A stretch of DNA of 64,000 nt from Somniosus microcephalus (Eukaryota), in the NCBI GenBank assembly GCA_052327205.1, contig CM126234.1, forward strand, positions 29,636,001 to 29,700,000, read 5' to 3'. A program made the position numbers and the translations under genes. Of the stretch, positions 2,789 through 62,300 are shown piece by piece. Numbering within the stretch: position 1 is the first letter of the stretch; each line of letters begins with the position of its first letter. The notes under the pieces were generated by a model. The model saw nothing but the letters and a program-made list of their open reading frames with translations. It had not been told where the DNA came from and searched no databases.

Positions 2789-2835
2789 CTTCACAGACTA
2801 TTTCTGTGCTTCTCAGCCACTGTACACAAAAACAT

Positions 2836-2852
2836 CTGAAAAAGAAAATCAA
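2836..2852 (-). promoter_or_regulatory. Splice acceptor of the ZC3H10 coding exon (exon starts at 2835)
   Basis: The minus strand reads ttgattttctttttcag|atgtttttg, 47 nt upstream of the ATG. An equivalent acceptor precedes both paralogs (14778, 51203). Confidence 0.75.
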
Positions 2853-3179
2853 GGTATGTCTTTACAGAGAAGGAAGAATTAATCCACAAAGTAAGTGTCA
2901 CTTGAACCACTGCATTTTGTGCTCAGCAAGCTGAACAGTGATTGTGGTGGAAATGAAAAAGGTTTCCAAATTTGTGTGTCCAGTGTCAGCATCAAACATT
3001 ATTAGTTTAATTGTACCACAGGTTAGATACATTTGCCTACAATTTGTCTTCACTAGAACTTCAGAAAACTACCTCCCACTGTACCAGTGTCACACTTTCA
3101 TTTCCCCAATCATTGATCCTTGGAGCCTATCTGAATTGGGCAATGATGAGTGCTAATTTGTACTAAATTATAGGTTGTT

Positions 3180-3645
3180 CTATAGAAACGCAGGAACAGG
3201 AGTAGACCATTTAGCCCCTCAAGCCTGTTCCGACATTCAATGAGATCATGGCTGATCTGCAACCTAACTCCATATACCCGCCTTTGCCCCATATCCCTTA
3301 ATACTTTTGGTTAACAAAAATCTATCAATCACAGATTTAAAGTTAACAATTGATCTAGTAGCAATTGCCGTTTGCGGAAGAAAGTTCTACACATAAAGGG
3401 TGGGAGAAGTTTAGAAGTGTTTCCTAATTTCACTCCCGAAAGGTCTGGCTCTAATTTTTAGACTATGCCCCCCTGGTCCTAGAATCCACAACCAGTGGAA
3501 ATAGTTTCTCTCTATCTACCCGATCTGTTCCCCTTAATATCTTGAAAACATTGATCAAATCACCCCTTAATCTTTAAATTTTAGGGAATACAACCCTAGT
3601 TTGTGTAATCTCTCCTGGTACTTTAACCCTTGGAGTCCGGGTAAC
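3180..3645 (-). mobile_element. CR1/HER1-like LINE 3' fragment
   Basis: The reverse complement resembles the 3' end of the CR1 at 39500-39920, including the gatcagccatgatctcattgaatg...ctcctg tail. Confidence 0.8.
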
Positions 3646-3894
3646 ATTTTGTGCTGTTGATTGATGTCCATTAAGAGCTTGTTTGAGATTTGCCAAACTT
3701 ATTTCATTTTGGACATCACAACTAGCAGAGAAAAGAGAACGTTCACTTCATCAGTCTGGGATACATTAAACAACTGCACCTACATGTAGGCCAATATAAA
3801 ATTCTGGAAAAATAATTTTTAGATTAAGGATTTTCATTGTGAATTGCTTATCCCCATCCAATCTATATTCATGTTTTCAAAAATATCAAAGAGC

Positions 3895-4045
3895 AGGGTC
3901 TTCAGGGTAGGGCAGTGAAGGCAAAAACCCTAGAGTCATTCAAGAGGCAGTTAGATACTGTGATGGGGCTGGAATTGTGGGTTTCGATGAAAGGATGAGC
4001 GAGAGGGACTGAATTGCCTCCCTCATCTCTACTTGCCTTTATGAC
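3895..4045 (+). mobile_element. Short degenerate CR1 3' fragment
   Basis: gggcagtgaaggcaaaaaccctagagtcattcaagaggcagttagat encodes an AVxAxxLxxFKxxLD-type ORF2 C-terminus, followed by a tail-like sequence. Confidence 0.5.
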
Positions 4046-4765
4046 ATGTAAATCAGTACAAAATATTGTTTGAGTACATTGCAAGGAATCTTCCCCACAG
4101 AATACAAATGAGTTTTCTTCTGGGATGCGGAGCTGTTGCTGCTCTCCCATCTCGGATTGTAGTCAAACAAGTCAACTTAAGTCTGATCCTGACACAGATC
4201 AGCCATTATGAATTCAATAAAGTGCGTAATAACATGCTTAACGCTACATTTCTTTTTAGAAATTATTGACGCAAGTTGATGCAGAGCCTCCACATTAATT
4301 TCTGTAGAAATAAACAGCACTCATCAAAATAATCAGATCCAGCAAAAAGTTAAATATGAGAATTAAAAGCAGTTGTTTGGAAAACATAATATGGAAAGTT
4401 TGTCGAACTAAACATGATTGCTGTTCATTTCTGATCTGTTCCCTCTGCAGCTTGTAAACCAATAGTACAATTCACATCAACAGCAGAACAGAGAACTGAC
4501 CCTCCTTCTTCTGAATGGAGTACAGAGCATACACTCCGTGGGTACGAGGGTTCAAACCGAGTACCTCAAATGTTCTTTCTGGGCAGTCTGTGGGATCAGC
4601 ACATGATGATTTAAAACAGCTTTCTGCTGAGCATGTGTTGTAAATTGTGTAAACAGACCTAAAGGCAAGGATATCATCACAAGAACGTAAAATAGTCGAA
4701 TGTGTAAGAGTCATTCAGCCATATCTCTAATGGTCTGAAATATGTCAGCTTGGTCACTTGTGTTT

Positions 4766-5183
4766 AGGGGAATGGGGAGAGTTTATGATGGCAATCAGGC
4801 ACTTGTGTTTATGGTAATGCATGCTTGTTTAGTTCATGTTGTTATTCTGTTGGCATTTGTATGTATCTTTGATGCGCTATGATTTATTGGTAGTATGCAT
4901 GGAATATAGTGATTAAAGGCAAAACTTGGTATAAGAAATGTGAGTGAACCACTGTTCAGCAGCTCATATTGAAACAGTTTAGTATGGAAAGACCGGAGCT
5001 CTCATACTGGTTTTGTGAAGTATGAAAAGACCCGTGAGCTTATACTGGAATCGTGGAGTATGTCTCACAGAGCCCATACTGGTTGTGGATGGTATGAGGT
5101 TTCAATAAAGTCCCGATCCTGCATTGCTACAACTGAGTGTGTGTGTAATCCGGCGTTTAAAGTAGCGAGACGAAAAAGTAACA
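4766..5183 (+). mobile_element. Probable polypurine tract plus 3' LTR of a degenerate LTR retrotransposon
   Basis: A purine tract (aggggaatggggaga) is followed by about 400 bp with AATAAA near 5105 and ends in ...gtaaca. The 5' TG and a target-site duplication are not clearly seen. Confidence 0.4.
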
Positions 5184-6105
5184 AGAAAGCAGTCCAACAC
5201 ACTCTATTCCTTGTAGTACAACATCAACTAGGATGAAAGTTCAGTAATGTGAACAAAAGTTTGTTGCTAATTCTTTTCGGAACTTTAAGTGTCAAGACTG
5301 GTTAATAACATCTTACCCTCCTCCCCACCCCCCTGACTATTCGGAGCTTCATTGTAGCAGAAGTAGGGGAGCTTCATTGTAGCAGAAGTAGAGGGTATCA
5401 GCTTTCAATACGATGAGCTGCAACCCCCACAAATTTATAAAAAGCTGTCATTGTAGTTTCACAAAGAAAAGTTTCAACAGCAGCACTTGCTTGACAAGTG
5501 GAACCGACTGGATAATCATGCAGATTTGGGAGGGGAGGGGTAAGAGAGACAAGTCAAATAGATGTTTGGCGCCTTGTGCTAAATGCAGGGTTAAACAGCA
5601 AGCCCTGAGGTTCACAATCAGTGAAAGCATAGAATGTAGCCTTTAAAATGAAGCATTCTCATGAGCAAGTGAGCTATAAATGCATAAAACCCACAATAAC
5701 CAGCCTGCATTGTGCATTTCAGAGACCATAATCTCCTTATTACATTTAGACCAGGCGTGCTTTGATAAAAAGGAGAAAATCAGGAGCAACTGCGTCCCAT
5801 AATGATTTTTTTAAAAGATTATATTGTACATCAAGATACCACCCACCCCAAGCAACACAACAGCAAACCAGCCGCACAGCCAAAGAAGGTAGGGTAGTCA
5901 GCCTCTGCCTAGCTACCCACCTTCCACATGGCCACCACCAATAAAATATCATAATTCGAAAGTGTGTGACACTACTGTGCCGAATAACTATATACCAACA
6001 GATTTATTGCATCAACGTATGATTCTAAAATGCATTGTAAACAAATACATAATTGCATCAACAAATGTGAAATTCTGGAAAAAACAGGATTACTGGAAAG
6101 ACTAA

Positions 6106-6928
6106 GGGCTCGAATTTCCAAGCCCCGTGGAGGCGGGTTTGGAGGCGGGACTGGGGGGAAAATTGCAGAATCGGGGGGCACGAACCCTTCCCGCCCCCAA
6201 CCCGTCTCCATGCCCGTTTCCCAGGAGGCGGGTACCCGACCTGTGCTGGGAGCCGCCTCCCCGAGGCGGGAAGGGGATTAGTGCCAATTAACTGCCTGTT
6301 AACAATTAAATCCCTATTTTTAGCCCTGAAGTGTGGGCTTCCCGACGGCTCCAAACCACACCAAGTTAGCGAGGCGGCCCGTCGGGCTGAAGGGCTTGGA
6401 GGGTTCGAGATGTCCGGTGTTCAGGTGAGTGATGGGTGCATGAGTGCAGAGGTAAGTGCGTTTGGTGTGTGTATAAAGTGTTTAAATAAGTTTTACTTAC
6501 CTTTACTTACTAATGCAGGCTTCCTTCCTTCAGGTCTCGGGAGTCCCTCATCTCACCGGCACAGAAAGCAGAATGGCCGGGAGCTGCCAAAAGTTGCAGC
6601 CTCTGCTTTCTGTTCTGGGGAGATTTCTAACTGAGTCGGTGGAGAAGGACTCAAGTTAGAAGTCAGATTGTCAGTGTTTGTCAGCTTCACAGAGCTGTCA
6701 AACGCTGATATTTCATCTGTCAAAAGCTCTTGACAGACGAAATGTCAATCCCTGACGTCACCTGTAACCAGATGTCCCTTAATTGGCCTGCTGAGCCCAC
6801 TGGGCGGGCTCAACAAGGTCAATCAAGGGAAAGTCACGTGGGTTGGCCACAAATCGATGGAGGCGGGACTACAACCCAAAAAGTGGGAGTCCCGCCTCCA
6901 TCATGTCCCCATTGACAAAATCCAGCCC
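6106..6928. mobile_element. Non-autonomous PIF/Harbinger-type element (MITE-like)
   Basis: The termini gggctcgaatttc and aaaatccagccc are imperfect inverted repeats, flanked on both sides by TAA (the 3-bp TWA duplication typical of PIF/Harbinger). Subterminal ggaggcggga motifs are present. Confidence 0.65.
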
Positions 6929-8129
6929 TAAGGGCTCCTCCAATGCTCAAGGATTTTAATCCACTGAGTAGCAGAGCCATACAGAGCAGCAAAGACTCAG
7001 GTTTGGCCCCTAGTCTGTGCGGAGTTAGCTGTTCCCAGCCAGGGCAGCATCACGGATGCTACAATTAGCCTCAGTGACCCTGGGGAGGGGGTGAAATCAA
7101 CTACAGATTGCCAGACAGGGTTAGCATACCAATATGTTGGGCTATGGAATGCTAGAATGCAGGCTCCCTCCTGCAAATGCTCCAAATGTCAAGTTTCCTG
7201 ACCTCAGTCACATCATCAAGCAAAAGCCAGGGAAACTTGGAAAGCAAACCACGGTCACATACCTCTTAGCAAGCGGTTACATCATGGCATCGGCAGAGGC
7301 CTGGGTGCCTATAATACTGCTGTATACAACTATCTCATCTCAGAAACATTTGGATTGTGCACTTGCACTGCTGTCCTCCATACTTTTCCACTGGGTTCCT
7401 AGCAAACATCAAACCACCACTTCAGGGGCAAGGAACAGAGGACAGTGACGAGCACAGAAACTGCAACTTCCTGAAAAAATAACTTTTAAAGTTTTCCACC
7501 CTCAGCAGCTCGGGTTGAGTCCCTGTCTCTGATTATTATTCTGTTAAACTGTTGGAAATGTGGATATGAGGTACAAATAGGATCAGGTAGGCTGCAATGT
7601 TCCTGACGGTCAAATAGCCTACTGGCACTCACTGCTCAGGCTCACACATGCAGAATGTCCACTTGGGTGAGAGACTGGAGGGCTGTCAGCACCTGTGGAA
7701 TTGTACGTCCAGATGAGTCACTGTTTTCAGGAAAGGATTGGCATGAGGGAGGGAGAAAAAGTGGAGTGCTTCAAAAAAAAACTTATATGCATCATGGTTA
7801 TGAAATTTTTCAGTTCTTGCTTCAGTTAGTGCACGTCAAATAGCTCAGCTACTTCAAAGAAATTGTAACCTCTATGCATAAGTTCGTTTTCAAAATTGTA
7901 GTGTCTGAGAAACAAATATTTAGGGTCATTTTTACCCCACCACTTTTCTCTCTTTTCCCAATGATGATCCACTGTCAAATTCTGCAAAGCTGATTTGCTT
8001 CATTTGACAATGAATCTATCCAGCAAGACCTTGAAGTAGAGTTTCCCCAACATTTTTCTGAAAGCGTAATACAGTATTTTTAGAGTACTGTACTCTAATC
8101 TCAAATCATTTCATTTGAAAATGACAATA

Positions 8130-9470
8130 TCTTCAAGCATGGGGGTCAGCTTTTATATGCTGATGATACTCAGCTTTAACTCTTTGGCATTACCTTCAAC
8201 TCTTACTGTGTTGTCCAACTGCTTGTCCGATATCAAACTGTGGATGAGCCAAAACTTTTTCCAGCTCAACATTGACAAGACCAAAGCCACCCTGTTCAGC
8301 TCCCACCTGAAACTCTGCACCCTAGCCTGCATTTCACCATTATAGGCTGAACCTGACAGTGCGCAACCTCAGTACCCTGTTGAACCCTCAAATGAGTTTC
8401 AAACCTCATATTGCATTCATTGCAAAAACCACCTCCATCCCTACTTCATCCCCATTGCTGCTGAAACTCCCATCCACGCCATCATCACCTCCAAGCTTTA
8501 CTTCTCCAATGCTACCCTCACTGGCCCCCAGAACTCCACCGACACAAACTGCAACTCACTTAAACATCTACTACCCCATATTAAGTCCCACGTGCCTCGG
8601 TCTTCACCGACTTCCACTGGCTAGTCACAGCACACCAATTTCTATTCTCATCTACAAATCTCTAGATGGCCTCACCTCCAACCTACTTCTGGAATCTTCT
8701 CCAGTCCTAGGTTTCAGTTCACACTTTCTGCTCGAGTCTGGACTACTTGTGCATCACAGACCGCGTCCCCCTCCGCCCCACCCTCTCCCCTTGATGGCAG
8801 AGCCTTCAACCATCAATGCCCATATTCTTGAATTCTCTTCCTAAATCCCTTCCACCTTGCTACCTCTTTCCCCACCTTCAAAAGCCTCCTTAAAACCCCT
8901 CTTGTAGCGTCAGCCGTGGCTCAGCTGGTAGCACTCTCGCCTCTGTCAGAAAGTTGTGGGTTCAAGTCCCACTCCAGAGACTTGAGCACAAAAATCTAGG
9001 CTGACACTCAGTGCAGTACTGAGGGGGGGTGGGGTGCTACACTGTCGGAGGTGCCGTTTTTCAGATGAGATGTTAAAACCGAGGCCTCATCTGCTCTCTC
9101 AGGTGGACATAAAATATTCTATGGCACTATTCCTAAGAAGAGCAGGGGAGTTCTTCCCAGTGTCCTGTCCAATATTCATCCCTCATTCAACATCACTGAA
9201 CAGATTATCCGGTCATTACCACATTGCTGTTTGTGGGAGCTTGATGTGCGCAAATTGGCTGCCACGTTTCCTACATTACAACAGTGACTACACTTCAAAA
9301 AGTACTTCATTGGCTGTAAGCGCTTTGGTACATCTGGTGGTCTTTCCTTTCTTTAACTACACCTTCAGTCGCCTCACCTAACTCTCACTGAGAGTGTCCA
9401 ATTCCCTCCCCATGATGTCCCTTGGGACATTTTGTTACATTAAAGACATTATACAAGTGTAAGCTATTGT
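8130..9470 (+). mobile_element. Degenerate L2-clade LINE 3' fragment, interrupted by a SINE
   Basis: Contains YADDTQL-like, CLSDIKLWMSQNFFQLNIDKT and RNL..L.PQMSFKPHI motifs. The L2 tail resumes after the SINE at about 9340. Confidence 0.7.
8907..9335 (+). mobile_element. Deu-domain tRNA-derived SINE (SacSINE1-like)
   Basis: A box tggctcagctgg, B box ggttcaagtcc, and Deu-like core gtgccgttttcagatgagatgttaaaaccgagg. Confidence 0.85.
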
Positions 9471-9846
9471 ACTAAAAAAATATAAAAATGTAAAGCATTT
9501 CGCCCGGGAACAAAAGTCTTATCAAGCAATACAACCTATTAATAATAGTAGATATTGAATCCTTAGTGTTTCAAATGCATGGGCGAGCCATAAATTCTCA
9601 AAACAATGCTTCTAAAGTCTGATTTAAGGAGCTGTTTACTGTAAATCACGCCATATACAGTAACAAGCTTGCCGAGGATTCGAAGGCTGTCATAGGATTT
9701 CTAGGCCTCAACTTTCTGCTCCATGAAACAACTGCACACACGAACACAGAATTAAACCTTCACTCGGAACATTTAAACTGTCGGGAGTAATCAACAGAGT
9801 GGGTCAGAGCGGTTAGAAAATAGACAGAAAACAGGGACATATTTAC

Positions 9847-9913
9847 ATACACGGTTCAGCTCACTCCTCCAAACACAACGAGCATCAAACAGGTCCTCCC
9901 AGACACGAGCGAC
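9847..9913 (-). other. ZC3H10: Putative non-coding first exon of canonical ZC3H10
   Basis: The minus strand reads gtcgctcgtgtctgggaggacctgtttgatgctcgttgtgtttggaggagtgagctgaaccgtgtat|gtaaat (alternative donor ccgt|gtatgt). It is an inverted homolog of the exon at 10130-10214. Confidence 0.65.
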
Positions 9914-10097
9914 TTAGAACCGCGTTTAATGTCCTTCTGTCAGATTAATAATTTGATGCACTATTTTCAAGTAAAACGTATTTAAACAGAATTCCCTCCA
10001 CCTCCCAAAGATCAATTTTGAAATTAAATGTCTGAAAATGCAGTAACGCGAAATGGTCCCCTCAACCGCACGGACGCTCAACGGGTTGCCGTTCATC
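9914..10097. promoter_or_regulatory. Putative bidirectional promoter between ZC3H10 and its paralog
   Basis: A short interval between two divergent homologous first exons, in a locally CpG-retaining region (about 9850-10560). Confidence 0.55.
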
Positions 10098-10214
10098 GAG
10101 CGATGGCTGGGGAGACAGCGGCTGCTGCGGTCGCTCTTGTCTCGGAGGACCTGCGTTCGACGTCTTTGGAGGACTGAGTGGAGAGAGAGGCAAAAAAAAG
10201 GCTGAACCGTGAAG
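10098..10214 (+). other. Putative non-coding first exon of the ZC3H10-like paralog
   Basis: A CpG-rich segment ending in the strong donor gaag|gtaagt and sharing gtcgctc..ggaggacctg..tttggagga..gctgaaccgtg with the minus-strand exon. The 5' boundary is approximate. Confidence 0.7.
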
Positions 10215-11294
10215 GTAAGTGTGCCCGTTTCTCTTGTGTTTTATAGATCGCTTTTATTCCCAGTATCGGTCGAGTGTCATTTTATTGTTTCTGCGGTTTA
10301 ACAAAAAAAATGAGCCAGGGTCGTCCCCCCGCCCCCCGACTTGTGCGCTGGCAGTTGTGTCAATTGGTGCAAATAAGTTGAGGCCTAGAAGCGCAATTGA
10401 AGCCTCGCTTGCAAGTTCGGCAACTTTCCGCCACCCAGAGCTGTCAACATCGCCATTTCGCGCGAGTTTCCCACTCAATGCCGGTAGGCCTAAGAACGAA
10501 AATGGTTGTGGGGGGGAATAGAGGAGTCCTGTCCGGTGTTCTGTGAAAGCTTATAAACCGGCTTGAAAGAATGGGATTGTGGATTCAGTGTGCAAAAAAA
10601 AAAGAGCATACATAATGTCTAAATGAAAATCGAAATAAGGAGCCGTTAAAGAGTACCCAAGCTGAAAGTATCGTTTTCAATTACGAGACTCCAATAAAAT
10701 TTTAACATTTTGATTTTAAATTTCCTGTTTAAAAATTATTTTAAGTCACTTCGTCCCGTTTGCTCCAGAAGCCGATTTTCTGTTGGCATAACTGGGTACA
10801 TCCCCAAGGGTGCTGCCCACTCCCTGGTGCTTCACCCAAGTAGCTATACACCATTCTTCATTTAGAGTCCAAGACGGGAGGGAATATCCGCAGGCTGTTG
10901 AACTTGGGGAAGGAGAAGACCATCAAAGCTGACCCTGATCCAGCATCCGTCAGTGATGGTGAAGGATTGAGAACCCTGGCTGATTCTTTTCCCCCTTGTC
11001 CTTCCCTAGCTCACTGACATGGATTCTACAAACAGTGTCGTTTGAATTAATTAAATCAGGTAATGACTGGGGATGGAAGCTGAACCTTCCTGGTCTATGT
11101 AGCGCATTTAGCCACTGAGTCATTGGAGTCCTAAAGTCTACCTGATTATGTGACTCAAAATAAATAAGTTTTAAACAGTTGATTTAAAAAAAAAAAAAAA
11201 AAAAAAAAATTCTTGGAAACTGGATGTAAAAATTTTTTTCCAAATGTGACTGTTACTTAGTTATACAATTATTATTTCCTTTTTTCCTCTTTAG

Positions 11295-11333
11295 GTCACT
11301 GCATCTTTTGCCATTCAAGAAAAAGAGTAAGCG
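11295..11333 (+). other. Candidate 39-nt 5'UTR micro-exon of the paralog
   Basis: tttcctttttcctctttag|gtcactg...gtaagcg|gtaagc: a polypyrimidine acceptor and tandem GTAAGC donors. Confidence 0.4.
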
Positions 11334-13182
11334 GTAAGCTTTAGTTGGTCACTTAAAGGTATGAGGGAGGGTAAATGATGCTTAGATTTTTTGTTCCTCT
11401 GCCACCCTGTGAGGAAACACCAGATTTTCGCTTTGTGACTCCTCCATTTTGCAACTAACATTAGGACCTTACAATGTGAAAAGTCTTAGAGATGAACTTA
11501 AAGATGCTATTCTTCCCTCTGTCCTGTCCAATTTTATCCCCTTGTTCCTTCTAAAGTCAATGACTCGCGCTGAGGTATGAGTCCACAGGTGACAACATTC
11601 CTTTAGTACTTTGCCCAAGTGGTTATTATTAACCCGGGAATAAATATTGGCAACTACTCAACTATGGAGACCCATAGCCAAGCTTAATCCTGTCTTTGCC
11701 CACTGTCCATATTTGTACTTTTAATGGTGTTAGAGCTAGAACCCTAGCTATTTTTTTTAAATCTTAATAATCAAGGGATGTTGAAGCCAAATTTGTTCCT
11801 CCACTGCTGCCCTGGTTGCGATCAGCTAACTTAGTGCAGACTGTGGGATGAACCTGGCACCTTGCTACCCTGTATGGCTCCTCAGTACTACCCCATAAGT
11901 TTCATTTGCCTACTAAGTTGCTGGTTGGTTGGGTGGGGGGGGGCTGGTGGAAGAAAGGATTGATTTTATGTGCTTTTTTGACTGGACTGGATTGCTACAT
12001 TTTTTTTAAATAGTCATGGGGAAGTACATTGCATACAAAGTACTGTCCCATCTGTATTTCTTAGGTGAGAAAATGGTTAAGGTATGTCCTCCCTGCCCTG
12101 CATAATAACATTGAAGTGAGTTCAGAAATTAAAAATTGGACCAGAAACTGTTTGGGATTATTTACCAAAATGCTATATTCTGCTGAAGAGGAGCTGAACT
12201 TAAAGTTCAAAACTCTCAAGGGTACAACACAACTTAAAATTGCACGATACCATTTATCAACATTATTTTGGTAAAAGTATTCAGTGCTGTAAATATGCTG
12301 CTCTTTGAATCAACAAATTAATTCAGTATTTGGGATTGTAAAAAAAGTAAATTTGATGAACTGAACTTGAAGCAATTTGTCAGATATTTGTGGCATTCTT
12401 GCATTGGACTTTGAGGAATAATTTACACATTTTATTCGACTGAATGCAGTTTACGTGTTTTAGATTACTGACCGTAACAGACTTGTACTCTGGCAGAAGG
12501 AAATAAAATGCAGCAAGTCATTCCTCCTCTCCAGTGGTATGCTGCTATCAGACCCATACTCTTGGATACAAATAAAACTAGTGCAGTTCAAGATTTTTTT
12601 TTTAATTGAGAAACTTAGGCACTAAGGCCTTTTCTACTTAACACCATAAAGATTGAAAAGATGAGGTAAATCAAGGTGTAGTAATTAGGTCGGAGAAAGG
12701 GAGGTAAAGAGTTTGACAATTTTGAGGTCCTGAGAGAGAATGAGTTAGAGTAAGGATCAGTGTGATGAATTTTGATTTAATCACTGAGGATGTAGGAAGT
12801 GTGTGTAGGATAGCATATTTGGAGCTTGGGGGAACAGGAGAAGAAAGTTCAGAGGAGCACTGATCATATTAATATGAATTTAAAGGTTGCAAAAAAAGAA
12901 AGAGGGGGTTAAGAGAATTGGCCAACAGACGGCAAGCTTTTCTTGCTTCATGTTCAGAAATATAAACGGTGCCAGAAGGGCTGCCCTCGTTTCTTCCCCT
13001 CTCCCTCGAAATATGGGAGCAGTACTCAAGTTTTTGATAGACATGAGTTTCATAAAGAGTTAACAGCTGTTGAGGGCAAAAAGGTTTTCGGTAACGAAAG
13101 GAGGAGCGCAGCTTCTTGGGAACAGCTTTATCAATAGAGCGGAAGCTTTGTTTGAGATCAGAGGCGATGTAAAAGGACAAAG

Positions 13183-13495
13183 ATGGTGGCATAGTGGTTA
13201 GCACTGTTGCCTCACAGCGCCAGGGACCCGGGTTCAAATCCGGCCTCGGGTGACTGTGCAAACTCCACACAGACATTCTCCCCGTGTTTGCGTGGGTTTC
13301 CTCCGGGTGCTCCGGTTTCCTCCCACAGTCCAAAGATGTGCGGGTTAGGATGATTGGCTATGATAAATTGACCCTTAGTGTTAGGGGGATTAAATACGTG
13401 GGGTTACGGGGATAGAGTGGGATATGTGTCGGTGCAGGCTCGAGGGGCCGAAATGGCCTCCATCTGCACTGTGGGGTTTCTGTGATTTCTGTGAA
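13183..13495 (+). mobile_element. V-SINE (HE1-like)
   Basis: tRNA head tggcatagtggttagc...ggttcaaatcc, V-domain-like cattctccccgtgtttgcgtgggtttcctccgggtgctccggtttcctcccacagtccaaaga, and a CR1-type tail. Near-identical to 25311-25667. Confidence 0.88.
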
Positions 13496-14826
13496 GAACT
13501 AAGGATAGGGCTATCAAAGTCAAAAAGTGGTAGCTGCTAGTTGGACTTGAGAGAGAGGAAGGAGTTATCTTTGAAAAATTTGAAGAAACAAGGTTTTATT
13601 GCCTCATTTAAAGGGCATGAAGGAGATAGAGATATGAGTCAAACGTTGTACTGCAAGAGGAATGTGGATCAAAGCATTAGAGCCCACAGCCTTTATTCCT
13701 AGGAATAGCACAAAGTTTGCAATTAAGCTGACAATATACGTTGACGATGTCATAGAAAATTGGGTTACATGTATTGTTTGTCTTTGCGTTTTAAATAATT
13801 GTTGAAAATTGCAACTTTAAAGTTATCTTAACTTGACGCTGCTTGTATTAAATGTCTATTTTCCATAAATTGGCTTTTATGAATAACATGGTATATTCAT
13901 GGATGTAATTCCATCAATAATATTTTTTTTTTACTGCAAACTACTTTATGAATATATATTTCAACATCATGTCATGATTGTGTGTGTAGTGTGCTAATTT
14001 GCACATTTAAGAATGTTACATAGCCTAAAATATACCTGTCAATTCTTAAATTGTTAAAGTAGATATCAAATATTTGTCTTGACATCTCTGGCATTAACAG
14101 TGTTTAAATATGGACAACAAAAATGTTGTGTTTTTTTTTAAACTAGAATTTAAGAGACCAGTTCTGAAATGATTAGCTGTAAGAATTTTCTGCAGTATGG
14201 TCAAGAAATTCCAAAGTAGTTAGCTACTTCTGTTGTGGAATTCCATGTGAAAAGTCAAAGGTTGGGTTTTCCATATTCATTTACACAGTATTTGTTACAA
14301 TACCTTTAATTGTGGGGAGACTGAACTCTAGGCTCTGGTGAGCTAAATCAGCACCATTTCCTTATCGTCTTTGTTCCTCAGCATGTTTCTTCAGTAGTTT
14401 GTTTCCACTGCTGATTGTAAGTCCCTGCATTTACAAGTTCCTAAAAAAAATCAATTGCAATAGAAATTCCTTTTTTTTCCCCCCCAAATATTTACTATCC
14501 GATGGCAATAATGATCAAGAAGGCATATATTATTTCTTTATTGTGCCAGTGTCTTTTTCACAACATTCCTATAAAGCATCAGTATCTATGATTTTAAAAG
14601 TAAAAAGGCAAACTAATGTTTCTTCTCCCTCGTTTTTTTTTAAATAAAACTTGATGTTCCACTACCACCCCCGAATATATATTTTCTATTGAATCAATGA
14701 TGTAGGTGCATCTACAATGTTTTGTGAGAAAGGGATTAACCACAGTTACTTTGTACCTGGCTTCTTTTTCTTTTGCAGTTGTTTATTGAGAGCCTTGGCT
14801 GAGTAGCGCAGAAATAATCTGGAAAC

Positions 14827-16473
14827 ATGTCCGAGAACGACACTGATAATTTAGTCAACAGCGGCAAATATGAGGCTGGCAAGAGCAAACGGAATGTTTG
14901 CCGAGACTTTCTGCGCAATGTCTGCACCCGTGGTAAGAATTGCAGGTACTTCCACCCGGACAATGTTGAGGCCTCGGACCTCGGCGACATAAGGAATGAT
15001 ACTGATAATTTAGTCAACATTGGCAATGATGAGGCTGGTAAAAGCAAACCGAACATTTGCCGAGACTTTCTGCGCAATCTCTGCAACCGTGGTAAGAATT
15101 GCAGGTATTTCCACCCAGATGATATTGAGGCTTCTGACCTCACTGACATAAGGAACGACATTGATAATGTAGTCAACACTGGCAATGACGAGGCTGGCAA
15201 AAGCAAACAGAACATTTGCCGAGACTTTCTGCGCAATCTCTGCAATCGTGGTAAGAATTGCAGGTATTTTCACCCAGATAATATTGATGTCTCCAACCAT
15301 GCTGACTTAAGTGATGACGCTGATAACTTAGTCAATAATAGCAAATATGAGGCTGGCAAGAGCAACCGGAATGTTTGCCGCGACTTTCTGCGCAATGTCT
15401 GCAACCGTGGTAAGAATTGCAGGTACTTTCACCCAGACAATGTTGAGGCCTACAGCGTAGGTGACATGCGGCATGAGTCAATCTTTTGTCAGTACTTTCA
15501 GAATAGTAAATGCACCCGTGAGAACTGCACGTTCATTCATGGGACAAAGGGGGAAGAGAGTTATTACAATAAAACGGGAAAGCTTCCCGCCCACTTGCAA
15601 CAGACGGTGGCTGTGACTTTTGGGCTCTCGCCCTCTAATCTGCCTCTGATTACAAAGGAGATCCCATTCTGCCGTGACTTTCTAAAGGGCAATTGTCGAA
15701 GAGGATCCAAATGTAAATTCCAGCACTTGAAACGTGATGACAATGATAAAAAAAGTGTCGAAAGAGCGTCACAAGATAGAGAACTTTCTCCTGCGACTTG
15801 TAGATATGACCGTTTGGATGACCTGTATGAAACCGAGAGATGTGATTATGACCAACATCCGAAAAAGAGAAGGATGGAGGGCCTGCGGTTTGAAGTATTT
15901 GATTACAGCACTCCTAATCTGCGCCCAGTTGAATTGAGTTTTTTGGAGGAGGAAAACCATATGCTCAGAACGCGCAATGAAGAACTCAAAAAGCAGGTGT
16001 CGAGCCTAATGCTGACCAACGAGGCCCTTCTTGAACAGAATGCAGAACTGCGCAAGCAGGTGAAGTTGGGGATCCTGACCACCGGGGCTGACCCAACACA
16101 ACATCCAACCATGCACACTGTTACCAACTATAACCACAGCATAGTGGAGACTCACACCACCCTGCGCAATCAGACACTGAGGTCACAGCCCATTTCTCAT
16201 CAAGAGTTGATCGCGCAAGCTAGAGCTCACAATGCGTTGTGTGCTGAAGCGACGTCCCAAAGTCCACCCCATCTTAGTGCTTCTATGTCTGCACCCTATG
16301 CCCAGGGGATGGCATCCCCAGTCTCGATGGCGCCGCTTGCCATCTCCGTTGCACCGGTGGCAGTTACACAATCACTGCCAGGAATTGCCATGAGTTATAC
16401 CACCACTCAAATGGTCAGTTATCCAAATGCATCACAGAGTATGAGGTTCCTCTGTCGTGCAGAGGAGAGTTGA
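14827..16473 (+). CDS. ZC3H10-like paralog, 548 aa, six CCCH fingers (4x finger 1 + finger 2 + finger 3), coiled coil and Ala/Pro-rich tail
   Basis: An uninterrupted ORF colinear with the canonical protein after the repeat (IFCQYFQNSKCTRENCTFIHG, FCRDFLKGNCRRGSKCKFQH, FLEEENHMLRTRNEELKKQVSSL, MVSYPNASQSMR). The acceptor ttttcttttgcag|t is at 14778, and the 5'UTR is homologous to the canonical gene's. Confidence 0.9.
   Translation: MSENDTDNLVNSGKYEAGKSKRNVCRDFLRNVCTRGKNCRYFHPDNVEASDLGDIRNDTDNLVNIGNDEAGKSKPNICRDFLRNLCNRGKNCRYFHPDDIEASDLTDIRNDIDNVVNTGNDEAGKSKQNICRDFLRNLCNRGKNCRYFHPDNIDVSNHADLSDDADNLVNNSKYEAGKSNRNVCRDFLRNVCNRGKNCRYFHPDNVEAYSVGDMRHESIFCQYFQNSKCTRENCTFIHGTKGEESYYNKTGKLPAHLQQTVAVTFGLSPSNLPLITKEIPFCRDFLKGNCRRGSKCKFQHLKRDDNDKKSVERASQDRELSPATCRYDRLDDLYETERCDYDQHPKKRRMEGLRFEVFDYSTPNLRPVELSFLEEENHMLRTRNEELKKQVSSLMLTNEALLEQNAELRKQVKLGILTTGADPTQHPTMHTVTNYNHSIVETHTTLRNQTLRSQPISHQELIAQARAHNALCAEATSQSPPHLSASMSAPYAQGMASPVSMAPLAISVAPVAVTQSLPGIAMSYTTTQMVSYPNASQSMRFLCRAEES
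14836..15471 (+). repeat. Coding tandem repeat, 4 x 159 bp (53 aa), each unit carrying one C-x7-C-x5-C-x3-H finger
   Basis: actgataatttagtcaaca occurs at 14842 and 15001 (period 159). Units start at 14836, 14995, 15154 and 15313, and CRDFLRNxCxRGKNCRYFHPD is conserved in all four. Confidence 0.95.
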
Positions 16474-32930: not shown

Positions 32931-33915
32931 CACTGGCGCATCAATCCGCTCACCAAAAGAACTATTCACAGGAACTGTCACTGTTTACCGTTTTCTTGCG
33001 ACAAATCTATCCATTCGCAAATCTAACCAATTCTTTATTTTTCTTTCACGAGACGTGCTAGACCCGACCCTGCTCTCCCTCCAAGATGGATGCTGCTTAC
33101 CTTTTAGCCATGACTTGCCCTGTTGGCGATGCTTGTTATTGGTTGGATTTGCTTTCTTCTGCTGACCTGGAGCAGTTATTCTGATCAGTAGAGCTGGCCA
33201 CAATAACCGCTCTCCTCACAATACAATACAATATTACTGGTGTTTCCATGGTTCTGAAGCCCAGCGTTTTCACCCATTTTACACACCATTATAGCAGATG
33301 ACCAATAAGCAGTAAACAAGGAAGTAAAGCACACACAATCAAAAAACATTGTGCATTTGTTGGTAAAATGTGTGAAAGGTTAAAGTTCACATGCATACAC
33401 CATGCAACTGAGTATTGAGATCACAGGCCCAACGACAGGGTCTATTACTCACTTTTTATCTACTAATCAGAAATGCAATTTGCCACATCTGGATTCCTAA
33501 TTAGCCACATGGACAACACTGGACTGGAAGGACAGTTTTTAGGAGGAGTTCCAGACAATCTGCTGGTACGGTTGCTGGACAACAGATATGAAACTTTAAG
33601 TGAGGTGGCATTATGTAAACACACGAGTGCAGGGAAACGTGTGGAAAGACCAATGCCACATGCTGGCAGGTGATTCGCTGAGCTAGATGATGCACCTGCA
33701 TTCTGTGATCCTGTACCAGTGCAGCCAGGCAGATCACAGAAGGACAATGCGTGAAATTAAATGTTACAGATACAGTAAGATGGGATGCAAAACAAAAATT
33801 GTTGGTTTGACAGGGGGCTGGGTTTTCTGCACATTCAATTTTCTGTCATTTTGTTTCTGAAATTCCCAGTGTATCACACTCCTCTCTAACAGACTGCATT
33901 TCCTTCTTTTGATCA

Positions 33916-34690
33916 CCGTTTAATCCATCGCTCCCGCTCAGGTCCGCACCGTGTCCTGGGCCTTCTCCGGTGCTCCGTTTAATCCGTCGCTCCCGCTCTG
34001 GTCCGCACCGTGTCCTGGGCCTTCTCCGGTGCTCCGTTTAATCCGTCGCTCCCGCTCTGGTCCGCACCGTGTCCTGGGCCTTCTCCGGTGCTCCGTTTAA
34101 TCCGTCGCTCCCGCTCGGGTCCGCACCATGTCTTGGGCCTTCTCCGGTGCTCCGTTTAATCCGTCGCTCCCGCTCAGGTCCATACCGTGTCCTGGGCCTT
34201 CTCCTGTGCTCAGTTTAATCCGTTGCTCCCGCTCTGGTCCACACCGTGTCCTGGGCCTTCTCCGGTGCTCAGTTTAATCCGTTGCTCCCGCTCTGGTCCG
34301 CACCGTGTCCTGGGCCTTCTCCTGTGCTCAGTTTAATCCGTCGCTCCCGCTCTGGTCCGCACCGTGTCCTGGGCCTTCTCCGGTGCTCCGTTTAATCCGT
34401 CGCTCCCGCTCAGGTCTGCACCGTGTCCTGGGCCTTCTCCTGTGCTCAGTTTAATCCGTTGCTCCCGCTCTGGTCCGCACCGTGTCCTGGGCCTTCTCCG
34501 GTGCTCCCGCTCTGGTCCGCACTGTGTCCTGGGCCTTCTCCGGTGCTCCCGCTCTGGTCCGCACCATGTCCTGGGCCTTCTCTGTTGCTCCCGCTCTGGT
34601 CCGCACCGTGTCCTGGGCCTTCTCCGGTGCTCCCGCTCCGGTCCGCACTGTGTCCTGGGCCTTCTCCGGTGCTCGGTTTAATCCGTCGCT
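33916..34690. repeat. GC/CpG-rich minisatellite: 10 x 59 bp followed by 4 x 42 bp
   Basis: The unit ccgtttaatccgtcgctcccgctctggtccgcaccgtgtcctgggccttctccggtgct repeats from 33916 to 34505. Units at 34506, 34548, 34590 and 34632 lack its first 17 bp. Confidence 0.95.
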
Positions 34691-35254
34691 GCCGCTGCCG
34701 CCACCTCCGCTGAGGTCCGTGCTGTCAGTACCCCGCTACTAATGAACGCTGAGTAATTGTCCACATTGCACATGCTCAAATTGCAGAAACAGCCTTCAGC
34801 ACACGGGGTCAAGGTTCTGGAAACACTATCAAGTCCAAGTCCAGGCATTTCAGAGACACTGGCTTTCAAATAAAAAACTTTAATGAAGCTATTAAAACAC
34901 AGAAGACACTTTAATTGTTAAATGTAATCATGTTACAATGAAATAACATGATTACATTTCTTGATGTTCCTATTTTTTTTTTAACACCTTGTTTTGGACA
35001 TTGAGTAAAAAATTGTTTGCCATTTTTGTTTAGTAACTGAAATTTCAAACAGCATTTTGAGAGAATCAATTGGTTCACCTTTTTCTTCTCCTGATTTGTA
35101 GGTCCGTCTCACTGATCCCTGGCGTAATTGCGGCAAGTAGGACGCTTGTGCACCTTCCTGGATTTTCCATGGGGGGTGGTAACGGGGATGTAGAATACAT
35201 CCGCCCTAATATAGGTGAATGTATTCAAAATATATGCAAATAACAAGAATCAGT

Positions 35255-37134: not shown

Positions 37135-39921
37135 TTGGGATTACGGAAACGTGGCTCAAGGAAGGCCAGGACTGGGAATTCAACATTCAGGAAAGATAGG
37201 CAAAAAGGAAAGGGAGGTGGGGTAGCATTACTGGTTAAAGAAGGGATTAACACAATTGTAATGAAGGATATTAGCTCTGATGAGGTGGAATCTGTATGGG
37301 TAGAATTGAGAAATACTAAGGGGAAAAAAACGTTAGTGGGAGTGGTATATAGACCTCCAAACAGTAAGGCGGAGGTTGGGGATGGCATTAAAAGAGAAAT
37401 TAAAGCGTGCAATAAGGGCACAGCAGTCATCATGGGTGACTTTAATCTACATATAGATTGGGCCAACCAAATGAGTAACAATACTGTGGAGGAGGAATTC
37501 CTGGAGTGTTTACGGGATGGTTTCCTGGACCAATATGTCGAGGAACCAACCAGAGATCAGGCCATCTTAGACTGGGTATTATGTAACGAGAAAGGATTAA
37601 TTAGCAATCTTGTTGTAAGAGGCCCCTTGGGTCGGAGCAATCATAATATGATCGAATTCTTCATTAAAATGGAGAATGAAGTAGTTGACTCGGAGACTAG
37701 GGTCCTCAATTTAAATAAAGGAAACTACGATGGTCTGAGGAGCGAGTTGGGTAGGATTGATTGGGGAATGGCACTCAAAGGGTTGACGGTGGATAGGCAA
37801 TGGCAAACATTCAAAGACCGAATGGATGAACTACAGAATTTGTTCATCCCAGTTTGGCATAAAAATAAAACAAAAAAGGTGACCCAACCGTGGCTAACAA
37901 GGGAAATTAGGGATAGCATATGGTCCAAGGAGAGGGCATATAAATTGGCCAGAAAAAGCAATAATCCTGAGGATTGGGAGCAGTTTAGGATTCAACAAAG
38001 GAGGACAAAGGGATTAATTAAGAAAGGGAAAATAGAATATGAGAGTAACCTAGCAGGAAACATAAAAACTGACTGTAAAAGCTTTTATAGATATGTGAAG
38101 GGAAAAAGATTGGTGAAGTCAAGCGTAGGTCCCTTGCAGTCAGAATCGGGGGAATTTATAATGGGGAACAAAGAAATGGCAGACCAACTAAATACATATT
38201 TTGGTTCTGTCTTCACAAAGGAGGACACAAATAACCTCCCAGAGATGCCGGGGAACATAGGGTCTGATGAAAGGGTGGAACTGAAAGAAATCAGTATTTG
38301 TAGGGAAATGGTGTTAGGAAAATTGATGGGACTGAAGGCCGATAAATCCCCAGGGCCTGATAATCTACATCCCAGGGTACTTAAGGAAGTGGCCCTAGAA
38401 ATAGTAGATGCATTGCTGGTCATCTTCCAGAACTCGATAGACTCTGGAACGGTACCCATGGATTGGCAGGTAGCTAATGTTACCCCACTATTCAAAAAAG
38501 GTGGGAGAGAAAAGGCGGGGAATTATAGACCAGTAAGCTTGACATCGGTAGTGGGGAAAATGCTAGAGTCCATTATAAAAGATGTAATAGCAGAGCACTT
38601 GGAAAGCAGTGACTGGATCGGACAAAGTCAACATGGATTTACAAAAGGTAAATCATGCTTGACTAATCTACTGGAATTTTTTGAGGATGTAACTGGTAAA
38701 ATAGATAAGGGAGAACCAGTGGATGTGGTGTATTTGGACTTTCAGAAGGCTTTCGATAAGGTCCCGCATAAGAGATTGGTGTGCAAAATTAAGGCACATG
38801 GGATTGGGGGCAAGGTATTGACTTGGATAGAGAACTGGTTGGCGGACAGAAAGCAAAGAGTTGGAATAAACGGGTTGTTTTCCGAGTGGCAGGCAGTGAC
38901 TAGTGGGGTACCGCAAGGATCGGTCCTAGGACCCCAGCTGTTCACAATATATATTAATGATCTGGATGAGGGAATTGGATGTAATATCTCCAAATTTGCA
39001 GACGACACAAAGCTGGGGGGGAGGGTATGCTGTGAGGAGGATGTCGTGAAACTCCAGCACGATTTGGACAGGTTGGGTGATTGGGCAGAAACATGGCAAA
39101 TGCACTATAATGTGGATAAATGTGAGGTTATCCACTTTGGTGGCAAAAACAGGAAGGCAGATTATTATTTGAATGGTAATAGATTGGGAGAAGGGGAAGT
39201 GCAAAGAGACCTGGGTGTTCTTGTGCACCAGTCGCTGAAGGTAAGCATGCAGGTGCAGCAGGCGGTTAAGAAGGCAAATGGTATGTTGGCCTTCGTAGCA
39301 AGAGGGTTCGAGTACAAGAACAAGGATGTCTTGCTGCAGTTGTACAGGGCCTTGGTGAGACCGCACCTTGAGTATTGTGTGCAGTTTTGGTCGCCTTACC
39401 TGAGGAAGGACGTTCTTGCCATGGAAGGGGTGCAGCGAAGATTCACCAGGCTGATACCTGGGATGGCAGGAATGACGTATGAGGAGAGATTGTGTCGATT
39501 GGGCTTATACTCACTGGAGTTTAGAAGATTGAGAGGGGATCTCATTGAAACCTATAAAATTCTGTCAGGCCTGGACAGACTAGATGCAGGAAGGATGTTT
39601 CTGATGGCCGGGGAGTCCAGAACCAGGGGTCATAGTCTAAGGATAAGGGGTAAGCCATTTAGGACTGAAATGAGGAGGAATTTCTTCACCCAGAGAGTGG
39701 TGAACCTGTGGAATTCTCTGCCACAGAGGGCGGTGGAGGCCAGTTCATTAAGTATATTCAAGAAAGAGTTGGATATATTTCTTAAGGCTAAAGGGATCAA
39801 GGGATATGGGGAGAAAGCAGGGACAGGGTACTGAATTTGGATGATCAGCCATGATCTCATTGAATGGCGGAGCAGGCTCGAAGGGCCAACTCCTGCTCCT
39901 ATCTTCTATGTATCTATGTAA
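37135..39921 (+). mobile_element. Young CR1/HER1-like LINE; 5'-truncated ORF2 (partial endonuclease plus complete RT), ORF 37123-39834
   Basis: A 903-aa open frame with GVVYRPP, MGDFN, LDWVL, the RT motifs QHGF, LDFQKAFD, GVPQGSVLGP and FADD, and a (tctatg)-type 3' tail. Confidence 0.96.
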
Positions 39922-41337: not shown

Positions 41338-41473
41338 GTTGCTCTTGGCTGGGAGGACCTGGTTGGATGCTCTTTGTCGTGAAGTTACCCTTGACTGGGA
41401 GGACCTGCGTTGAGCCTCTTTGTGTCGGAGCTGTGAGGGAAGGAGCGGAGTCGAGCGGTGCTGTGCTGTATAG
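41338..41473 (+). other. Homolog of the ZC3H10 first exon (third copy), within a CpG-retaining region
   Basis: Two copies of the exon-1 motif (gctcttggctgggaggacctggttggatgctc and cttgactgggaggacctgcgttgag), then the donor tatag|gtaaac followed by tccctggttt as in the canonical copy. Confidence 0.6.
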
Positions 41474-51203: not shown

Positions 51204-51840
51204 TTCCTTGTTGAGCATCTTGACTGAACAGCACTGAATTAATCTATAAAAATGTCAGGTACAGATCATTTAGTCAACAGTGGCAACAGCAAGGCTGCCA
51301 ATAGCACTGATGACATTTGCTGAGACGTCCTGCGCAACTTCTGCATCCGCGGCAAGCGCTGCAAGTTCTGCCACCCAAACGCTAATGAGTTTTCTGAACT
51401 TGGCTTTTTGTGTTATGACCTTCTTAATAAAGGCTGGATTCCAGTCTGCCACGACTGTCAGAAGGGTGGATGTCAGAGGCCCAGGTGTAAATTGTTGCAT
51501 GTAGAATGTGATGGGTATAATTATGAAAATCACCAGTAGGGAAAGCATGTATCATTGCCAAGTACTGTTTCCCTTGATGGGTAGATAAGATCCCCATCAA
51601 GGAGATACCCATCTGAAGAGAAGAATGACTCTCACTGAGATAGGAATATGGCGTCCCAAGTTCACATCCAGTTGATTCCTAATACCTTCAAGAGACCCTT
51701 ATGCTGCGAAAGCACAATGGGGAACTCCATACAGGTGGCAAATCTGGCGCAGAATGCACATCTCTGCAAACAAATGGCAGTGGGAATGCTGGCCTCCGCA
51801 CTCTTGGAAACAGCTGGGATGCACTTCTCTCAGTAACATC
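51204..51840 (+). pseudogene. ZC3H10-like pseudogene (third copy)
   Basis: The acceptor ttttcttttgcag is at 51203 and the ATG at 51252: MSGTDHLVNSGNSKAANSTDDIC*DVLRNFCIRGKRCKFCHP...IPVCHDCQKGGCQRPRCKLLH. A frameshifted coiled coil follows (MLRKHNGEL / QVANL / QNAHLCKQ). The TGA at 51321 replaces Arg. Confidence 0.85.
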
Positions 51841-61300: not shown

Positions 61301-61879
61301 TAGTTAATTTCCTTCTTGACATCAGCTCTTGATATCATGTAAAATTTTCTTTTTGAACATTTTAAGGTCTGTTGTAAATTGTAATCCGTAAAAAAAAAAA
61401 AATCAAAGTTTCTATTCCTTATTTTTTTTCAGCAGCACAATCAACACGTACAACCTCCATCTTATATATCAGTGCTCTGCTGCTAAGCTGCACAGTTTTT
61501 AAACTAGTTAAACTCCAGCAGTACGTGTGTGGGTGTGGTGGGGGTGTCTCTTAGTCTCTCAGACTCGGCTCCTTAGACTTGCTTCACTTTCGGAAGTGTA
61601 TTCTATAATCGAGCAAATCTACTCGTGTAAATTTCTCAATAATTTGGTTTGAAAACTCTTAACACGCTAATGAGTTTCCGCACATCGGATACTTGTCTGA
61701 TGTTTTTAAAAATACGGTGCTTACTAAAGTTAGTACTTTGTCATTACTTGTGGTGGTTTATTTGTGATCTCACACGCCTTATTCAGTTTTTGCAACTTGC
61801 TTCCGGCATAAGTTGTTTTCCCTACAATTGTTCAGTTACAGTGCATTATTATGGTTTGGTTTCATGATGCTCTGTTTCT

Positions 61880-62300
61880 CGATCGCAGATGGGCAACCCT
61901 GGTGGTTGCTATGCTCTCATTTCCTTTGCTTGAGCTGTCGGCGTCTCGGTGCTTCTCGAGTCGCGCGGTTTGACGTCGTGTGCTGCTGGTGAATGTGGGG
62001 GAGGGAAGTGGTATTGACGCGCGCCATTTTAAAATCGGCTTTTCAGGCCGCAGTGCTATCGCCGATCTACTTACAAAATGGCGCCTGCCGCCATCTCGGA
62101 TGACTGTCGGGTAGATTAGCCAATGCGGAGGGCTGCCTTTCCCGGATATTTCCGCCCAGGGTTCGGCCTTTTGTGTTGTTGAGGCCCAATACAAAGTTTA
62201 TTTAATCGTCACTTTCCAAGCGCTGATTGAATTCCGCATAGTTCCTCGCTGCTAGCTGGATGTGTGGAGGTAAGATCCCGAGTTTTTTTTGTTTTCGGCC
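61880..62300. promoter_or_regulatory. CpG-island promoter with three YY1-like motifs, CCAAT and an RFX-like box; splice donors on both strands
   Basis: cgccatttt (62022), aaaatggcg (62075), gccgccatct (62087), ccaat (62120) and ggcaacc...gttgctatg (about 61892-61912). The plus donor gag|gtaaga is at 62269 and the minus donor ttt|gtaagt at 62075. Confidence 0.65.

Follow-up and report, generated by a model that had tools for sequence, protein, structure and literature searches.

Gene content of the ZC3H10 cluster

The window, that is, the whole stretch of 64,000 nucleotides that was analysed (G000:C33:29,636,001-29,700,000), contains two intact ZC3H10 genes, A and B, which lie on opposite strands with their 5' ends facing each other, as well as the remnant of a third copy. 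In mammals, ZC3H10 regulates mitochondrial and interferon genes. A protein search of the whole genome (6.45 Gb) found six ZC3H10 coding loci, five of which form a cluster with the strand order A (-), then B, C, D and E (+), and the sixth, F, is located on contig C32:

1586..2835, minus strand: coding exon of copy A (CDS 1586-2788, 400 aa, intact; acceptor at 2835)
14779..16473, plus strand: coding exon of copy B (CDS 14827-16473, 548 aa, intact)
51204..51560, plus strand: copy C, a ZC3H10 pseudogene fragment with in-frame stops, without finger 2, like copy D
about 72 kb in window numbering, plus strand: copy D, 223 aa
about 97.6 kb in window numbering (L014:3581-4417), plus strand: copy E, 279 aa
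L030:377-1225 (G000:C32): paralog F, 282 aa, GC-rich, without finger 2

The fingers and zipper, the names of the homologs and the trees described below all agree in placing A and B in the ZC3H10 family, and the Pfam zf-CCCH domain scores above its cut-off in both proteins. Copy A encodes three CCCH fingers and a bZIP-like zipper, and is 98% identical to one shark A ortholog. Sharks and rays have the proteins most similar to those of the window, which points to a cartilaginous fish, most likely a shark. Copy B, which is 93% identical to the Heptranchias protein and 85-91% to those of other sharks and rays, encodes finger 1 four times in tandem, followed by fingers 2 and 3 and by a zipper with Asn at the second "a" position; the four finger 1 copies are present in 19 of 21 B orthologs from sharks and rays. 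These repeats (window 14827-15450) are about 53 aa each and make B a six-finger ZC3H10 variant. Most of the C-terminal tail is missing from D and E, as is finger 2 from C, D and F.

Copy E, which has no Pro-rich tail, shows high conservation among sharks and rays (a 16-member cluster, 96% identity to a sawshark protein), and F has orthologs in sharks, rays and chimaera, with none in bony vertebrates among the matches listed. Rhinoraja longicauda carries two near-identical A-type genes (P0008, P0011) on one contig, a lineage-specific further duplication. As well, in carpet-shark A models (358-aa isoform X2), translation begins at an ATG that is out of frame and a 92-nt GC-AG segment within the coding exon is spliced out, by which finger 1 is lost; copy A shares this ATG, the GC donor and the AG at window ~2690-2598 (-). 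Between the coding sequences of A and B, no further conserved ORF of at least 90 aa was recognised, and a search of 9300-11600 for structured non-coding RNA gave no Rfam match at E<=0.5.

Human ZC3H10 lies between PA2G4 and ESYT1 in 12q13 (PMC6262175), and the PA2G4 and ESYT families are found on the same contig as the ZC3H10 cluster here. The shark X shares homology with a part of human chromosome 12 (PMC10620051), and the cluster is, therefore, probably X-linked. This X is reported to be common to sharks and rays, with incomplete dosage compensation (10.1101/2025.03.13.642935; PMC12318234).

Candidate first exons and the mirror match between the two arms

Between the two coding exons, the following features are arranged around a short spacer:

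9847..9913, minus strand: candidate non-coding first exon of A (donor 9847 or 9851; 5' end undefined)
9914..10129, no strand: spacer, likely the shared promoter (216 bp, non-palindromic, 14 CpG)
10130..10214, plus strand: candidate non-coding first exon of B (donor AAG/GTAAGT)
11295..11333, plus strand: candidate optional 5' UTR exon of B (strong acceptor; donor GCG/GTAAGC)

A sequence-only reading of this DNA had claimed that the two exons match in inverted orientation, and its coordinates and sequences were borne out: the reverse complement of 9665-9913 aligns with 10130-10426 at a score of 61.4, a value reached by none of 500 dinucleotide shuffles (mean 16.9, sd 2.6, max 31.7). Under strict scoring, the best mirror block (9735-9699 against 10351-10390) scores 47, and none of 1000 shuffles is as high. 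The mirror homology continues about 200-250 bp into both introns, past the exons named in that reading, with identities between A and B of 22/24 at the exon start, 11/11 in GCTGAACCGTG ahead of the donor and 16/16 in the intronic block AAGTTGAGGCCTAGAA, the last of which that reading did not contain. The acceptor and UTR ahead of each ATG align again between A and B (36.9 against 9.7), while the deeper intron and 3' flank beyond about +300 are at background (15.3 against 15.0, 15.3 against 15.6 and 16.8 against 13.4). Since 46 of 98 fourfold-degenerate sites differ between A and B and the deeper intron and flank have fallen to background, the conserved blocks look constrained, that is, retained better than neutral DNA, via selection or later conversion.

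At 2835 (-) and 14779 (+), in the coding exons toward which these exons point in the sequence-only reading, the acceptors are canonical pyrimidine-tract AG sites. The B donor at 10214 matches the splice consensus at 8 of 9 positions, and the A donor is ambiguous, with TAT/GTAAAT (9847) and CGT/GTATGT (9851) each matching at 6 of 9. Homology between the candidate B exon at 11295-11333 and the internal exon of E is at background level. Among the proteins examined, no A or B model is N-terminally extended through exon 1, and one E model is extended: that of the zebra shark (P0194), whose extension maps to a small internal exon at L013:7673-7716 with a GTAAGT donor. This model shows that, in E, UTR exons further 5' are joined to the corresponding acceptor, and it bears on E, not on the A/B exon. 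The predicted 5' UTR of A contains two short upstream ORFs, one of 9 codons from exon 1 (9885, -) and one of 14 codons that runs from the first base of the coding exon (2835) to 2 nt before the main ATG; the predicted 5' UTR of B has no upstream ATG.

A seven-copy exon element with a conserved AGGCCT

Judged from the copies found, the exon element is not private to the A-B pair, as it occurs 5' of ZC3H10 paralogs at seven sites (A, B, C, C2, D, E and F). Besides the two exons above, these are:

41338..41473, plus strand: element copy of C, two-unit form, 5' of copy C in CpG-rich DNA
L011:5833: element copy C2, 97.7% identical to the C copy
L011:6492: element copy of D, 78% identical to the A copy
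L013:967 and L006:921: element copies of E and F, respectively

The motif unit is present twice in tandem in C, C2, E and F and once in A, B and D, and an AG stands directly before the element in C, E and F. In pairwise scores, A is closest to D (137.8) and then to B (61.4), and the C-E pair scores 127.4. At D, two first-exon copies are stacked (L011:5620-6700): a recent duplicate of the C copy with a GC donor comes first and, 660 bp after it, an A-like exon copy without an aligned donor. The F lineage contains a Callorhinchus gene (SH-aLRT 99), and the element is thus older than the chimaera-elasmobranch split, F being a copy on another contig whose lineage separated before chimaeras diverged.

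A second conserved feature lies within each intron:

9701..9708, minus strand: AGGCCTAG, ZFX/ZNF711-type motif, +206 from the A element start
10381..10388, plus strand: AGGCCTAG, ZFX/ZNF711-type motif, +252 from the B element start, inside the 16/16 block

A further AGGCCT is found at ~10486 in the B arm. AGGCCT occurs at +190 to +288 from the element start in all seven copies and is the sole hexamer common to all of them in +130..+310, against a background of 134 of 4762 tiles (2.8%) and 11 of 135 GC-rich tiles; the seven copies are related and are not seven independent draws, F, with its otherwise unalignable intron, being the informative one. In human cells, AGGCCT(AG) is reported as the motif that ZFX/ZNF711 bind at +240 of CpG-island start sites; it is enriched at -240 too, and it is neither required nor sufficient for binding (PMC5848610, PMC7293018). 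The genome holds two Zfx-family loci. In both A and B, the motif and its position, about 240 bp downstream, are those of a ZFX/ZNF711 target, and the retention of AGGCCT at seven copies fits a putative "+240" promoter site of this kind, a resemblance that was spotted after the fact.

A likely shared divergent promoter

CpG o/e is 1.10 over 9847-10214 (GC 0.49) and 0.44 in the window. At 10001-10400, GC is 0.51 and CpG o/e 1.07, which makes the shared region a CpG island, and the A side alone stays below 50% GC. Per 400 bp, the A arm has 12 CpG (o/e 0.71) and the B arm 25 (o/e 0.96), and at least 13 CpG are found in 26 of 159 window tiles. The element copies of C, C2 and F lie in CpG-rich DNA, and that of E is CpG-poor (o/e 0.39, 0 CpG upstream). 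In the ~7 kb intron of A (2835 to 9800), there is no non-repeat CpG-rich stretch besides the island. One CpG-rich segment in this intron was considered as an alternative A promoter and ruled out as a high-copy repeat; of the 40 places scored, the 39 full-length ones besides it are 88-94% identical:

6106..6929, no strand: CpG-rich interspersed repeat in the A intron, 7682 first-look candidate places in the genome

The CpG enrichment, the kept AGGCCT and the lack of another unique CpG-rich stretch together support two first exons on one promoter, and the A and B elements are, therefore, likely to be first exons that share a single CpG-rich divergent promoter. The candidate exons are 216 bp apart, and the spacing of their start sites follows from motif position only. 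Each arm would carry its own copy of an ancestral ZC3H10 start-site module, made of the exon motif and the downstream AGGCCTAG at ~240 bp, and the human +240 rule would place the start sites near 9945 (-) and 10140 (+), ~195 bp apart. Generally, a nucleosome-depleted region sits between divergent start sites (PMC4972320), and the two predicted sites may represent the two edges of a single nucleosome-free region, the opening of which would fire both A and B. Transcripts of A would then splice from 9847/9851 to 2835, and those of B from 10214 to 14779, with or without 11295-11333. No TATA, CCAAT, ETS or NRF1 consensus was found in the spacer.

It is also conceivable, if clearly unlikely, that both exons are used as two independent back-to-back core promoters with uncoupled outputs, A being ubiquitous and B confined to certain tissues, for instance, and that their closeness is a relic of the inversion. 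Each arm comes with a downstream module of its own, the GC content of the spacer is asymmetric (34% in the A half, 56% in the B half), and this A half resembles the sequence 5' of D, so that it can move without the B half. However, about 200 bp would fit only one nucleosome-free region, and the A-B spacing has stayed intact although repeats entered the A intron. Another reading, which we regard as very unlikely, treats the island as the promoter of B, with the A arm as a decaying copy and A starting at some other, unrecognised first exon. The weak donor of A, the upstream ATG in its exon and the lower CpG on its arm would suit such decay, and stray element copies do exist (C2 with a GC donor, and the D copy without an aligned donor); yet a promoter is needed for A, which is of the ancestral type and evolves most slowly of the copies (end branch <=0.01), the A arm retains the 16/16 intronic block with B, and 2835-9800 offers no other non-repeat CpG-rich stretch. 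That the element is instead an internal 5' UTR exon, with true starts further out and transcripts overlapping head to head, is highly improbable: the AG that stands before the C, E and F elements, the CpG-poor E copy (which an internal exon could also show) and the small internal UTR exons known in ZC3H10 genes (E, L013:7673) would agree with it, but the F element lies at the 5' edge of a CpG island (2 CpG per 200 bp upstream, 36 per 400 bp downstream), and AGGCCT at +190 to +288 suits a start site at the element.

Age and inversion history of the pair

The sequence-only reading had described A and B as a duplicate pair produced by an inverted duplication centred near 10020. A private pairing of the two did not hold in our trees, all of which are quick trees built without pseudogene C and without the three extra repeats of B, two smaller ones with 2-3 orthologs per paralog. 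A groups with chimaera ZC3H10 (support 84-89) and B, D and E group together (97-98), the B protein being nearer to D/E than to A, and an A+B clade could be rejected at p-AU 0.008 (quick tree; long branches). The inversion itself was upheld, as A is clearly inverted relative to the other copies, but the proposed centre was not recovered. The two arms of the spacer show no symmetry (score 8.8 against a shuffle mean of 8.1, with 137 of 500 shuffles as high), and a palindrome with a preserved centre was rejected on this ground; because the spacer is not palindromic, no duplication centre is demonstrated. The midpoints of paired A/B landmarks shift from 10021 to 10044. A degenerate first motif unit at the spacer ends (TGGCTGGGGAGAC near 10104) is visible, yet 158-182 of 1000 shuffles score as high, and it was not retained. 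In one of ten such tests, the A half of the spacer scored 24.0 against the sequence upstream of copy D, a value reached by 3 of 500 shuffles, and the two have a 14-mer in common; across 8 tests against the sequences 5' of C, C2, E and F, z for the spacer never exceeded 2.4.

By orthology, the A-B pair belongs to an old cluster with orthologs in sharks and rays. A and B orthologs are on contigs of matching length in 11 of the 13 species with both listed (among up to 15 members listed per cluster), a figure that shows the same chromosome only and is pooled across species in the other 2 of 13. In the bamboo-shark draft, the gene numbers are GCC33842 (A), 33843 (B) and 33845 (E), and in the catshark draft A and B are numbered far apart; RefSeq numbers run B, A, E in length order, so adjacent accessions are not proof of adjacent genes.

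With regard to orientation, an ESYT-type SMP-domain gene is found at C33:29.85 Mb (+) and PA2G4 at 28.27 Mb (-), and RPL41, sought as a further marker to orient the locus, was not found near the cluster. Fused amniote gene models have PA2G4, ZC3H10 and ESYT all on one strand, which implies that B-E keep the ancestral orientation relative to ESYT and that A is the reversed copy. A thus seems to be reversed relative to its ESYT-family neighbour yet to retain the ancestral protein. Before the shark/ray split, one copy would have become inverted, and the plus-strand lineage would have grown in tandem into B, C, D and E. An early inverted duplication (A versus B, D and E) followed by tandem growth of the plus-strand copy fits the data, and tandem duplication followed by inversion of A would fit equally. 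A derived one-unit exon is common to the A and B arms, but the A and B coding exons are not sisters, and the arms were, therefore, probably homogenised or re-copied later; the A-like exon at D indicates that such copying did happen.

Zipper divergence and predicted dimerisation

Both A and B retain the coiled coil, as the sequence-only reading had noted, with identical g-e pairs. In the heptad register assigned in this analysis, with Leu at "d", copy A has N-V-I-N-N at its successive "a" positions, and B and E have N-N-V-N-N; the x that varies in the RxRxEEL motif given by that reading falls on a core "a" position. At the second "a", all 17 A orthologs have V/I, whereas all 21 B orthologs and all 15 E orthologs have Asn, a residue that none of the 17 A orthologs has there, and Asn at this position was found in 0 of 117 usable rows from other vertebrates (146 in total, 29 dropped without anchor). 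Asn-Val pairs at a-a' occur often among bZIPs that do not bind each other and strongly destabilise dimers (PMC4335062), a rule that comes from other bZIPs. Given this rule and the fixed Val-to-Asn change, the A-B heterodimer is predicted to be disfavoured and B-E dimers to be allowed.

This weakens the suggestion of the sequence-only reading that A and B heterodimerise through their zippers, with B modulating A, which we now consider unlikely. In its favour, besides the zipper and g-e pairs present in both, four of five a-a' pairs in an A-B dimer are compatible, the zipper is needed for mammalian ZC3H10 function (PMC6911170, PMC13375009), and head-to-head COL4A partners are reported to co-assemble (10.1101/2023.10.18.563013). 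However, the one Val-Asn mismatch falls in heptad 2, a non-terminal heptad, the Asn is fixed in B and E but absent from A and from the usable rows of other vertebrates, and ZC3H10 dimers are not described in the available text of PMC6911170 and PMC13375009. The proteins would instead sort into separate dimer classes, A-type with Val and B/E-type with Asn, and co-expression of A and B would yield two parallel regulators, not an A-B heterodimer.

Relation to known systems and significance

Like A-B, the COL4A1/2, COL4A3/4 and COL4A5/6 genes are divergent paralogs on a short shared region that have long been kept; their promoters were shown experimentally, whereas that of A-B is predicted from sequence, and their partners co-assemble, whereas the A and B zippers are predicted to segregate (10.1101/2023.10.18.563013). 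Unlike COL4A, the first-exon arms of A and B are still alignable and the pair sits within a tandem cluster. About 10% of human genes are divergently paired (PMC3815023). A-B resembles the bidirectional CpG-island pairs described there in that the predicted starts are less than 1 kb apart, on opposite strands and in CpG-rich DNA, but the peak of similar function among divergent pairs consists mostly of 12 histone pairs, whereas A and B are zinc-finger/bZIP-like regulators, each with a duplicated start-site module. As at ZFX/ZNF711-bound promoters, AGGCCT(AG) lies ~240 bp past the presumed start in CpG-rich DNA; ZFX binding was shown in human cells only, whereas here the site is proposed from motif, position and conservation (PMC5848610, PMC7293018). 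Mammalian ZC3H10 has, as here, three CCCH fingers, a basic NLS, a zipper, a Pro-rich tail and a single-exon CDS (PMC6911170, PMC13375009), but this genome has six coding loci, one of them a pseudogene, and a copy B with four finger 1 copies and an altered zipper.

The architecture of head-to-head paralogs is, therefore, already known from COL4A and histone pairs, and the shark ZC3H10 pair itself is apparently unreported: a literature search on ZC3H10, including ZC3H10 in sharks, found nothing on this locus, and the supplements of PMC11406177, PMC12318234 and PMC10620051 gave no match, although the PMC12318234 spreadsheet and bioRxiv supplements could list these genes. We tentatively propose, as a possibility of rather low probability, that one ~200-bp promoter on the X has co-fired an ancestral regulator and its re-keyed, four-finger-repeat paralog for ~300 million years. 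If so, a single promoter would feed two insulated dimer networks (A-A versus B/E), the opposite logic to that of the collagen IV pairs, and the cluster, on an ancient and incompletely dosage-compensated X, would be a candidate dosage-sensitive locus. Moreover, the seven dated module copies, two of them back to back, may serve as a natural experiment in how a one-way vertebrate promoter turns two-way, and they provide sequence evidence for a putative ZFX-type +240 site kept since before the chimaera/shark split. As well, they accompany an elasmobranch ZC3H10 expansion that is probably X-linked and has a predicted change in dimer specificity.

Other features of the window

A CpG-rich segment at 61600-62600 (o/e about 1.0) contains no ZC3H10 exon copy and may be another promoter or a repeat, and a GC-rich tandem repeat occupies 33900-34700. 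An interspersed repeat of ~430 bp is present at 8905-9340, with several copies elsewhere, and an open LINE-type reverse transcriptase frame of 857 aa extends over 37261-39834.
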